A DNA stretch of 25,879 bases from the NCBI GenBank assembly GCA_003135555.1, contig PLCF01000064.1:1-25879 (forward strand), given 5' to 3'. The notes beneath the pieces are model-generated. The model ran no database searches. It was not told the DNA's origin and saw nothing but the letters and a program-made list of their open reading frames with translations. The translations under genes and the position numbers were made by a program. Shown piece after piece: positions 2,298 to 5,588 of the stretch. This stretch comes from Vulcanimicrobiota bacterium (GTDB taxonomy: Bacteria; Vulcanimicrobiota; Vulcanimicrobiia; Vulcanimicrobiales; Vulcanimicrobiaceae). Position 1 is the first letter of the stretch. The number at the start of each line of letters is the position of its first letter.

Positions 2298-3851
2298 TCA
2301 TCCCGAGTTCGCGGGGAGCCCGGCGAAATAGGCCTCGACGTCTTCGGCGAAGCTGTATCGCGCCGGCGGGCGCGGCATCCCGTGCGCGACGAGGGCGCGT
2401 GCACAACCCAGCCAGTCGCCGTCCGATTCCGTCTGCGCACCCGAAACGAAGCTCAACGTTCCCATGACGTTGTCCTCATAGCCGTGTTCTTCGGTCCAGC
2501 GTGCGCCGTGTTCGAGCAAGAACTCCGTGAGCTGCGCGTCGCCGCGAAATACCGCGAGGTTGAGCGCGCTCGCGCTCCAGTCGCCGCCGCGCACGTCGAT
2601 CGGCCATCCCAACGCCACCATCAGCTCGACCGCGTCGCGCCGCCCGCTCTCGGCCAGCACCGGCAGTAGCCGCAACTGCTCCTCCGAAAGCTCGCTCAGC
2701 AACGCCGGCTGCGTTGCGAGTAGCGCGGCGGCCGCGTCGCGATCGGCGCGCGCGCAGGCGCCGAGAAAGCGATCGTGCGCCGCCGGCGGCTCGTCGCTCC
2801 CGAACCGCGCCACGATGTCGGTGCGGCCGAACCGAAATGCCAGCAGCTCTGCGGAGACGCCGCTCGACGCCGGCGCGGTCGGATCGGCTCCGGCCGCCAG
2901 CAACGCGTCGATATGCGCGAGCGAACGCCCGCGCCGGATCGCGTGATGCAGCGGACGGCCCAGGCTGTCACTGAACTCGTTGGGGTCGCCGCCGTGCGCG
3001 AGGAGCAGTTCCAGGCCGGGGAGATTCTCGCGGTCGAGCACGTGGAAGAGCGCATTCCCGCCGCTCACGATTGCGCCGGCTTCGAGCAGCAGTCGGGTGC
3101 ATTCCAGATCCGGACCGTCGAGCGAGTGGTAGAGCGACTCGCCGTCGTTGGGATCGGCCCCGGCCTCGAGCAGCATCCGCGTCAGCGCAGGATCGTGCGC
3201 GTGCCCAGCCGCTCCGTACAATGCCCCGAACGCGGCACCTGGGAACGCCGCCGGAGCCCAGGTCGCGTCGCGATCCGCGCCGGCGTCGAGCAGGATGCGC
3301 GCGCAACGCCGCAACCCGTCGGCGAATCGCGGGAGCCGCACGAGCGTCGAGAACGTTACCGCCAGCAGCGGCGTCATCTCCAGCAAGCTGCCGGCGCGGT
3401 TCACCCAGCCCGGGTCGCGTTCGAGCGTCTGCCGTATGACCGCCTCGTCGCCGGCCGCACACGCGACGAAGGGGTCGGCGCGCCGTTCAGCACCCAGCTC
3501 GTCGTAGACACGTTCGGCCGCCGCCGGACGCGGCGGGTCGAACCCGGCGCCGTAGACCAGGTCGAACCAGCGGCTCAGCGCGCCGTCTTCGGCGCGAACG
3601 CGTTGCCATTCGACGTAGGTCCGCAGCTCGGACCAGGATGGAAACCCGTATTCACGTCCGACGCACGACTGCATGTCGTGCAGGCGCAGCGCGAGATCCG
3701 CCAATTCGGCGTCGTCGCGACCGCGAGCAACCGGCAGCGCCTCGCGCAAGCGCTCGAAGGCGCCGCCGTCGCCCGCGCGATAGTCGCGCAGCAGATCCTT
3801 CGCCTGCGCCTTGAGATGGGCGACGCTGGGCCGCGCCGGCAACCGTTTCAT
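2298..3851 (-). CDS. Ankyrin-repeat protein with an N-terminal helical domain (LPARPSVAHLKAQAKDLL...GREYGFPSW)
   Basis: Repeated ankyrin consensus units (TPLLAV..LLDAGAD, LLEAGADPN, LLAHGGDPN, RPLHHA..LLAAGADP, SALNLA..LLEHGA). ATG at 3851 has a GAGGT Shine-Dalgarno at 3860-3856, preferred over the ORF-track start at 3899. Confidence 0.88.
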   Translation of the reverse strand: MKRLPARPSVAHLKAQAKDLLRDYRAGDGGAFERLREALPVARGRDDAELADLALRLHDMQSCVGREYGFPSWSELRTYVEWQRVRAEDGALSRWFDLVYGAGFDPPRPAAAERVYDELGAERRADPFVACAAGDEAVIRQTLERDPGWVNRAGSLLEMTPLLAVTFSTLVRLPRFADGLRRCARILLDAGADRDATWAPAAFPGAAFGALYGAAGHAHDPALTRMLLEAGADPNDGESLYHSLDGPDLECTRLLLEAGAIVSGGNALFHVLDRENLPGLELLLAHGGDPNEFSDSLGRPLHHAIRRGRSLAHIDALLAAGADPTAPASSGVSAELLAFRFGRTDIVARFGSDEPPAAHDRFLGACARADRDAAAALLATQPALLSELSEEQLRLLPVLAESGRRDAVELMVALGWPIDVRGGDWSASALNLAVFRGDAQLTEFLLEHGARWTEEHGYEDNVMGTLSFVSGAQTESDGDWLGCARALVAHGMPRPPARYSFAEDVEAYFAGLPANSG

Positions 3852-4003
3852 GGGAACCTCACATGCAGAAGAGCCGCGACCCGCAATCTCGGCATGCACG
3901 AAGGTTCGTGACGTGCTCGGCTACCGGCAAGTGGGTTCAACCCTTCCCGCGGGCCCGGAGGCGGCTTGCATCCGCCGACGGCGCAGTTGGCCTCCGGTCC
4001 GCG
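3852..4003 (-). ncRNA. Candidate structured cis-regulatory RNA leader of the ankyrin gene
   Basis: Complementary segments seen directly: CGCGG-A-CCGGAGGC (4003-3990) with GCCTCCGG-GC-CCGCG (3962-3948); hairpin GGGTTGAACCC (3943-3933); GAACCTTCGTGCA (3907-3895) with TGCATGTGAGGTTC (3867-3854), which covers the SD; competing hairpin CACGAACCTTCGTG (3910-3897). Confidence 0.55.
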
Positions 4004-4032
4004 CGTTCCCTCGTCGGCGCCGGCGAGCGTCA

Positions 4033-4059
4033 AGGAGAAGGCATCGTCCGCCTTCTCCT
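4033..4059. terminator. Perfect 10-bp hairpin just downstream of mmsA; possible terminator or processing stem
   Basis: AGGAGAAGGC-atcgtcc-GCCTTCTCCT. T-tracts are weak on both strands (CTTTG on +, TG on -). Confidence 0.5.
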
Positions 4060-4079
4060 CTTTGAATTCCGCCGCGTGG

Positions 4080-5588
<1,509 letters not shown>

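Follow-up and report, generated by a model that had tools for sequence, protein, structure and literature searches.

The locus

The window, by which the whole analysed stretch of 25,879 nucleotides from a Vulcanimicrobiota bacterium is meant (contig PLCF01000064.1), carries on its minus strand the gene of an aldehyde dehydrogenase (Pfam Aldedh, E 1.6e-143), whose stop lies at 4080, followed by an ORF of 517 amino acids (2298..3851) that encodes an N-terminal domain (N-domain) and ankyrin repeats. The protein opens with MKRLPARPS...LKAQAKDLL...REYGFPSW. Between this stop and the ATG of the ankyrin gene (3851) there is a gap of 228 nt, as an earlier note on this DNA had stated, and the Shine-Dalgarno (SD) sequence of the ankyrin gene, GAGG, lies at 3860-3857. 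The next ORF, of the dihydroxy-acid/6-phosphogluconate dehydratase type, has a listed start that overlaps the end of the ankyrin gene (2294-2300), so that a leader in front of the ankyrin gene may govern two genes in this genome.

The upstream part of the gap (4028..4059, minus strand) holds a hairpin behind the aldehyde dehydrogenase stop (4059-4033) and an overlapping TTGACG (4033-4028). The hairpin is strong, with 10 bp, and has no trailing U-run on the strand of the gene; in the terminator scan it appeared terminator-like on the plus strand only, where no gene stops. TTGACG is the same as the -35 box found in front of orthologous genes in related genomes. The window has no -10 box that would match it, and a promoter scan of 3700-4300 gave no sigma-70-like promoter.

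The DNA of the window is present in peat metagenome runs. Contigs from one RNA run span 3912-3983 at a depth of 2-5 and carry no information on start or strand.

Folding of the window and database searches

The earlier note had proposed that the gap forms an unnamed cis-regulatory RNA that buries the SD of the ankyrin gene, and all the complementarities it listed exist where it had placed them. The minimum-energy fold calculated with ViennaRNA includes its long closing helix, the small hairpin GGGU-UGA-ACCC and a 13-bp anti-SD stem. Taken alone, the fold of the window is no better than chance: 3852-4003 gave z = -1.40, with 16 of 200 shuffled sequences equally stable, and the z of -2.45 for 3840-4079 comes in part from the unrelated hairpin at 4059-4033. 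The single-sequence fold is thus too weak, and the case rests on comparative evidence.

The earlier note had recognised no named riboswitch here, and Rfam 15 agrees, giving no match at gathering score either for the whole window or for 20 loci of other family members. Searches by E-value produced only noise: the window scored 9.9 bits against a gathering score of 145.1, on the other strand, and two member leaders gave sub-threshold scores of 12.6 against 39, 15.6 against 45 and 16.2 against 94 bits. The leader is therefore a family that is catalogued nowhere in Rfam 15. The passages retrieved by full-text searches (ankyrin with riboswitch candidates, structured noncoding RNA, RNA motif or pseudoknot, orphan riboswitch; discovery papers based on GC-rich intergenic regions, GC-IGR) contain no description of it, and neither do the main texts of PMC11109978, PMC8632094, PMC6429828, PMC5737381 and PMC2864571, in which the word 'ankyrin' was looked up. 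Motifs listed in the supplements of these papers that lack Rfam entries, e.g. Burkholderiales-1, Soil-1 and Solibacter-1 of PMC2864571, may coincide with the leader.

Distribution of the leader

The earlier note had stated that a similar core precedes other genes with the same N-terminus. This core, with three positions left free, served as a search pattern for a scan of one genome per species, and the statement was borne out: the matches comprise at least 120 loci, spread over about eleven phyla. About 4 would be expected by chance at even base composition, and no more than about 40 were all the DNA to have 70% G+C. Among the matches listed were Pseudomonadota, Acidobacteriota, Verrucomicrobiota, Planctomycetota, Gemmatimonadota, Actinomycetota, Armatimonadota, Latescibacterota, Eremiobacterota/Vulcanimicrobiota, Bdellovibrionales and a Kapaibacterium; cultured carriers among them include strains of Variovorax, Bradyrhizobium, Paraburkholderia, Burkholderia, Dokdonella, Delftia, Herbaspirillum, Mesorhizobium and Streptomyces.

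Nearly all the pattern loci listed lie 70-110 nt 5' of an ORF that opens with LP.RP..L..LKKQAK.LL. By regular expression, 109 of the 120 loci listed have, shortly 3' of the core, an ORF whose product contains an L[KR]KQAK-like motif; the distance from core to start is 68-122 nt in 105 of them, and the remaining 4 had a mis-called start.

Three further data sets were used. Alignment A1, made with MAFFT from 108 leaders, was not fitted to any structure. Covariance model R1 was built from 27 cleanly aligned members of the proteobacterial type and contains the nested helices P1-P4 only. Alignment A3 (101 rows), which results from the search with R1, is fitted to these nested helices. As the loci were collected by pattern, the invariance of the 19 core positions that it specifies is built in.

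R1 matched all 100 sources searched. It also matched each of the 15 pattern loci for which the ORF search had given no downstream ORF or only an oddly spaced one, two of them weakly; among the 120 pattern loci listed, L033 (27.6 bits) and L068 (core only) seem to be decayed or fortuitous. The window matches R1 with 98.6 bits (E 3.9e-18) at 3980-3849, over model positions 1-131 of 131 and ending at the ATG, and this is the only copy that the model finds in its genome. A full-length match directly 5' of an ORF with the N-domain is what defines membership; judged by its sequence, the segment 3980-3849 is thus a member of a widespread, uncatalogued family of putative 5'-leader RNAs of about 125-135 nt.

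In related bacteria the distribution is patchy. Among 60 related genomes, R1 found the leader in 8, and within the genus in 7 of 36. It lies directly upstream of 8 of the 10 N-domain matches in these relatives (one match to the model spans the 5' half only), and the other 2, both weak protein matches, have no R1 match upstream. Conversely, four further R1 matches each precede an ORF with the same N-domain; their cores depart from the pattern (CCGCGU; P2 loops UUA, UCA and UUU). Weaker copies (37-43 bits) lie 5' of diverged paralogues in the genus of the window and have P2 stems of the type GGAC...GUCC with loops AGA, CGA or AGAA. A search of plasmids gave one match, on a 2.48-Mb replicon of Variovorax paradoxus, 5' of a gene annotated as hypothetical protein. 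In this V. paradoxus (VAI-C) the gene is single and stands alone, and no annotation lies under the leader itself. The members of the family are related and have probably spread by transfer.

A BLAST search of the gap against the same 60 genomes found a 48-nt piece (approximately 3975-3927) with 94% identity 5' of the orthologous genes of two relatives, G003 and G004, whose proteins are 54-65% identical to that of the window. In both, a promoter (TTGACG-N17-TATGAT or TATCAT) lies directly 5' of the leader piece, and in the majority consensus of A1 the motif TAnnnT is found nine bases 5' of P1. For most members the RNA is therefore predicted to start a short way behind a promoter of the sigma-70 type. 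The window lacks this family feature, having no promoter immediately 5' of P1.

Some copies in these two genomes deserve separate mention. The orthologue in G003 (L003/L012/L015, G003:C3 ~480769-482216) matches in three pieces with one in-frame TGA, and the gene looks broken; the leader in front of it is intact (124.5 bits). In G004, L002 (G004:C171) and L025 (G004:C68, at a contig end) have the same 118-nt start of the leader and different upstream DNA, so that they are two copies or the result of an assembly fork. The DNA 5' of the G004:C171 copy includes a low-G+C stretch that differs from the rest, and a third, diverged leader copy was found at G004:C315.

Structure of the leader RNA

The whole family leader corresponds to 3849..3980 of the minus strand; as delimited by the R1 match, it begins with the 5' side of P1 and reaches the start codon. 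All its elements are described here 5' to 3' on this strand, with pairing frequencies from A3 and energies for the window.

The first element is hairpin P1 (3960..3976), in which GGCGG (3976-3972) pairs with CCGCC (3964-3960) around the loop AUGCAAG (3971-3965). P1 is 90.0% paired with compensatory changes in 3 of 5 pairs, and its energy is -9.1 kcal/mol. The loop contains GCAAG (3965..3969), the 5' strand of pseudoknot PK1, which pairs with CUUGC (3927..3931) behind P2, from which it is separated by A3932. This helix (-4.4 kcal/mol) is 90.9% paired; its pair 15:102, for example, is GC in 63 rows, AU in 31, GU in 3 and unpaired in 2. P1 is followed by junction J (UCCG, 3956..3959) with two near-invariant C residues: C occupies column 25 in 100 of 100 rows and column 26 in 91, and neither is imposed by the search pattern.

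The next strand, GGCCCGC (3949..3955), forms a long-range helix with GCGGGUC (3884-3878). Its duplex energy is -12.3 kcal/mol and it is 98.3% paired, with pair 31:194 being UA in 63 rows, CG in 26, UG in 3 and unpaired in none. Behind it lies a core of unpaired purines (3944..3948), consisting of GG and then GAA, the latter being RAA across the family; it is invariant in A3 as imposed by the pattern. Among the five full-length divergent copies shown it reads GG-(A/G)AA in 4 and GG-AGA in the fifth, and GU-AAA in one further copy. The stretch GRAAGG was considered as a mimic of the SD, and shows no variation on which covariation could bear. Hairpin P2 (GGGU-UGA-ACCC, 3933..3943) is 99.8% paired, and its fourth pair changes between CG (45), UA (42) and AU (11). 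This is the small hairpin that the earlier note had drawn, and it is both conserved and covarying.

A linker of variable length and sequence (3908..3926) leads to the second sub-domain and contains an extra hairpin in some members, such as L055, L134 and L089, in which it lies after PK1. The anti-SD strand of P3 (3895..3907) pairs with 3867-3854; the 3' strand (3854..3867) contains the SD GAGG at 3860-3857, and U3861 is bulged. This stem of 13 bp, which has one bulge and covers the SD and was already described in the earlier note, proved to be a conserved element of the family, 93.8% paired with compensatory changes in 9 of 10 pairs. P3 encloses hairpin P4 (3873..3893), in which GCCG (3893-3890) pairs with CGGC (3876-3873), and which is 96.3% paired with compensatory changes in all 5 pairs. 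The loop of P4 contains the invariant GCGG (3884-3881), which takes part in the long-range helix. In members of the Planctomycetota type (L130, L096, L072, L042, L102, L121) an extra hairpin lies between P4 and the SD strand.

Taken together, the six helices are paired in 94.7% of 3382 cells of A3, against 38-54% when the partners are slid by 1-3 columns. Compensatory changes occur in 25 of 36 pairs. Double-sided changes were counted in 465 cells, against 164 +/- 13 in shuffled alignments, and none of 500 shuffles reached the observed number; these counts ignore the kinship of the members and so overstate their independence. PK1 and the long-range helix lie outside the structure of R1. These two pseudoknot helices alone are 95.0% paired, against 31-51% when slid, and have 97 double-change cells against 28.9 +/- 4.0 in shuffles. 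RNAalifold applied to A1 recovered the long-range helix unaided, with one pair being UA 76, CG 29, UG 3 and none broken, as well as P2, with its fourth pair being UA 49, CG 47 and AU 11. A1 also shows GCGG as a second invariant block, which is absent from the search pattern. The comparison of regions upstream of homologues, which the earlier note had suggested, thus yields a conserved core and covarying stems across phyla. U-G pairs are frequent in P3 (e.g. UG 62 and UG 49 in A3), so the structure fits an RNA of the sense strand only.

Three parts of this fold, i.e. the conserved P1 (GGCGG/CCGCC), the pseudoknot of its loop and P4, are absent from the earlier drawing, which had instead closed the structure by a longer helix, also called P1. 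The pairings of the latter are present in the window: CGCGG with CCGCG (4003-3999 with 3952-3948) and CCGGAGGC with GCCTCCGG (3997-3990 with 3962-3955). While this helix belongs to the ViennaRNA fold, it is not conserved. Its 5' strand at 4003-3990 lies beyond the 5' boundary of the family (approximately 3980), in an extension specific to the window (3981..4003, minus strand), and relatives hold the promoter at that position; as a feature of the family it had to be abandoned. Inside P1 the window is longer than the orthologues of G003 and G004 by about 28 bases, at the place where the orthologues carry the -10 box, and it is from this insertion that the long helix arose. In the window the old 5' strand of P1 (GCGCGG) is stranded upstream and the -10 box is gone. 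Contigs of other strains share the element up to 3978/3979 and then diverge. The long helix alone has an energy of -25.6 kcal/mol, and conserved P1, long-range helix and PK1 together about -25.8 kcal/mol with loop costs ignored; thus the 5' extension, if it is transcribed, could rival the conserved fold at about equal energy.

The two alternative pairings that had been thought to compete in a switch fared differently. The pairing of GGCCCGCG (3955-3948) with TGCGGGTC (3885-3878) is present, and it is a constant part of the fold, paired in nearly all members as given above, rather than a competitor. The hairpin CACGA-ACCT-TCGTG (3910-3897) also exists in the window; as a hairpin that frees the ribosome-binding site (RBS) by tying up the anti-SD strand it is found in 25 of 95 members, against 24.9 +/- 3.4 for shuffled sequences and 22.6 +/- 3.2 for non-cognate upstream segments, and was rejected as a conserved feature. 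For a pairing of junction J with the 3' strand of P4, the one variable position gives Watson-Crick pairs in 61 of 87 cases. Comparisons within the family gave no conserved alternative (ON) structure, and switching between two conserved structures stays a proposal.

The N-terminal domain

The constant part of the proteins behind the leader is an N-domain of about 80 residues, which consists of LP.RP..L..LKKQAK.LL, an optional middle and L.DAQ..LAREYGF.SW..LK. Its predicted model has five helices (pLDDT 88.8). The rest of the protein varies. Ankyrin repeats follow in 18 of the 26 ORFs scanned, in one of them below the Pfam cut-off; the other C-terminal parts are LRR, PcfJ-like, the Lon substrate-binding domain with an RNA polymerase alpha C-terminal domain, a weak match to the N-terminal part of Glyoxalase_8, or none. 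Homologues of the N-domain show a similar picture: of the 120 matches listed, ankyrin families are present in 111 and the Lon substrate-binding domain in 7, and 2 have no further domain. The fusion to both the Lon substrate-binding and the RNA polymerase alpha C-terminal domain is found in L079:2091-3230, where the leader RNA is kept; fusions with the Lon substrate-binding domain also occur in P0092, P0102, P0103, P0107, P0112, P0115 and P0121.

Database searches gave no function for the N-domain. The best match in a profile search of the PDB was a designed protein (E 0.017), the Atlas clusters were named hypothetical only with all scores below 0.9, Foldseek gave nothing at E <= 0.001 and the best Z in VIA-align wide was 4.5. 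In NCBIfam a single member had a weak N-terminal match, to PRK05973. None of these searches matched the N-domain, by fold or sequence, to RNA-binding proteins.

Possible function of the leader

The comparative data very probably describe a conserved cis-regulatory leader RNA that sequesters the SD, a confidence that covers this general statement and not the identity of the trigger; the proposal of an unnamed leader burying the SD of the ankyrin gene is supported to that extent. In the compact double-pseudoknot state the SD would be out of reach of the ribosome, and the folded state would correspond to OFF. The amount of protein would then be set by a trigger, which would either stabilise or loosen the 5' domain and the way it docks to the loop of P4.

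As to the trigger, a small ligand seems the most likely candidate, if a tentative one, and would make the family a new class of riboswitch. What is expected of a riboswitch is found in part. There is a conserved, covarying, structured RNA that could serve as an aptamer, and there is an expression platform, in which P3 pairs the SD and the loop of P4 docks on the 5' domain. Genes that hint at the metabolism or transport of a ligand were not found among the downstream ORFs, which encode ankyrin, LRR, Lon N-domain, PcfJ-like or unknown proteins. These are scaffold-type proteins and not enzymes or transporters, and so they give no pointer to a ligand. The near-invariant unpaired or tertiary bases (C25 and C26, GG-RAA, the A after P2 and GCGG) favour a specific partner over a simple damper.

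The partner might also be the product of the gene, and we rank this second, as a rather unlikely reading. The all-helical N-domain would bind the folded leader and repress its own translation in the style of ribosomal protein leaders. Consistent with this, the RNA tracks the N-domain and not the C-terminal part in the ORFs scanned; the N-domain homologues listed carry ankyrin families in most cases and the Lon substrate-binding domain in a few; RNA and N-domain co-occur in both directions in relatives; and the domain is confidently modelled and has no known function. On the other hand, adjacency alone would hold the leader and the first codons together through domain shuffling, the N-domain resembles no RNA-binding protein in sequence or fold, and the contrast between an RNA core with 94% identity and proteins with 54-65% is a pattern more usual for ligand pockets.

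Another explanation could be that the structure has no effector and serves only to damp translation or stabilise the mRNA, or that it melts with temperature. P3 is local and should form unaided, and the lack of a conserved ON structure means that the fold could be constitutive. A damper or a thermometer would need neither two covarying pseudoknots nor the roughly twenty unpaired or tertiary positions that stay near-invariant in about eleven phyla, which makes this explanation improbable. That the conservation reflects a DNA-level element (operator palindromes, e.g. CCGCGG and GGGTTGAACCC) or a short coding leader is more improbable by far: two short palindromes do lie within the core, which adjoins a promoter, but long-range pairs about 65 and about 35 nt apart covary, G-U pairs are frequent and strand-specific, and loop and linker lengths vary freely.

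Returning to the ligand-sensing leader, its fullest form is slightly more tentative than the assignment of a small ligand as such. The leader would represent a new riboswitch class, in which the RBS is part of a double-pseudoknot aptamer; it would sense a cellular signal widely shared by soil and peat bacteria of about eleven phyla and control a portable module of leader and N-domain. If this is true, the leader and the 80-residue N-domain form a module that is joined to differing protein-recognition domains (ankyrin, LRR, Lon N-domain). To our knowledge, bacterial ankyrin-repeat proteins outside pathogens are largely unexplained. The trigger, once found, would assign a function to both the leader RNA and the N-domain, and the carriers include cultured, tractable bacteria (Variovorax, Bradyrhizobium, Paraburkholderia, Dokdonella, Streptomyces). 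The leader family is also an entry that genome annotation pipelines now miss.

Comparison with known leader RNAs

The leader of rpsO, encoding S15, is an autoregulatory pseudoknot around the ribosome-binding site. The leader described here similarly forms a pseudoknot around the RBS and is tied to one protein family, which makes feedback by the product plausible. It differs in that the product is no known RNA-binding protein, and, unlike the vertically inherited leaders of ribosomal protein genes, it is near-identical in about eleven phyla and, within a genus, patchily distributed.

The ZTP riboswitch (pfl motif, RF01750) has two sub-domains, a variable linker and long-range pairing, and the two sub-domains of the leader likewise span a variable linker and are tied by long-range pairing. 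Membership in RF01750 was considered and rejected: the match, on the opposite strand of one member, had 12.6 bits (E 9.9) where the gathering score is 39, and both the core and the helices differ.

SAM-II, preQ1-II and preQ1-III are pseudoknot riboswitches with the SD in or beside the aptamer. In these general features the leader resembles them, being cis-acting and pseudoknotted with the SD paired when folded, and, as it has no terminator, its control would be translational as in these riboswitches. It is larger than they are, with six helices and two pseudoknots, has no Rfam match and precedes genes of scaffold-type proteins rather than those of a metabolic pathway.

The yjdF and raiA motifs are orphan riboswitch candidates, each associated with one gene family, for which the natural ligand was missing at discovery. 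Unlike these motifs, which are in Rfam, the leader is absent from Rfam 15; like them, it combines a complex conserved fold with a narrow gene association. Broadly distributed and structurally complex leader RNAs that are in no catalogue are rare, and past cases have led to new ligands and new biology.
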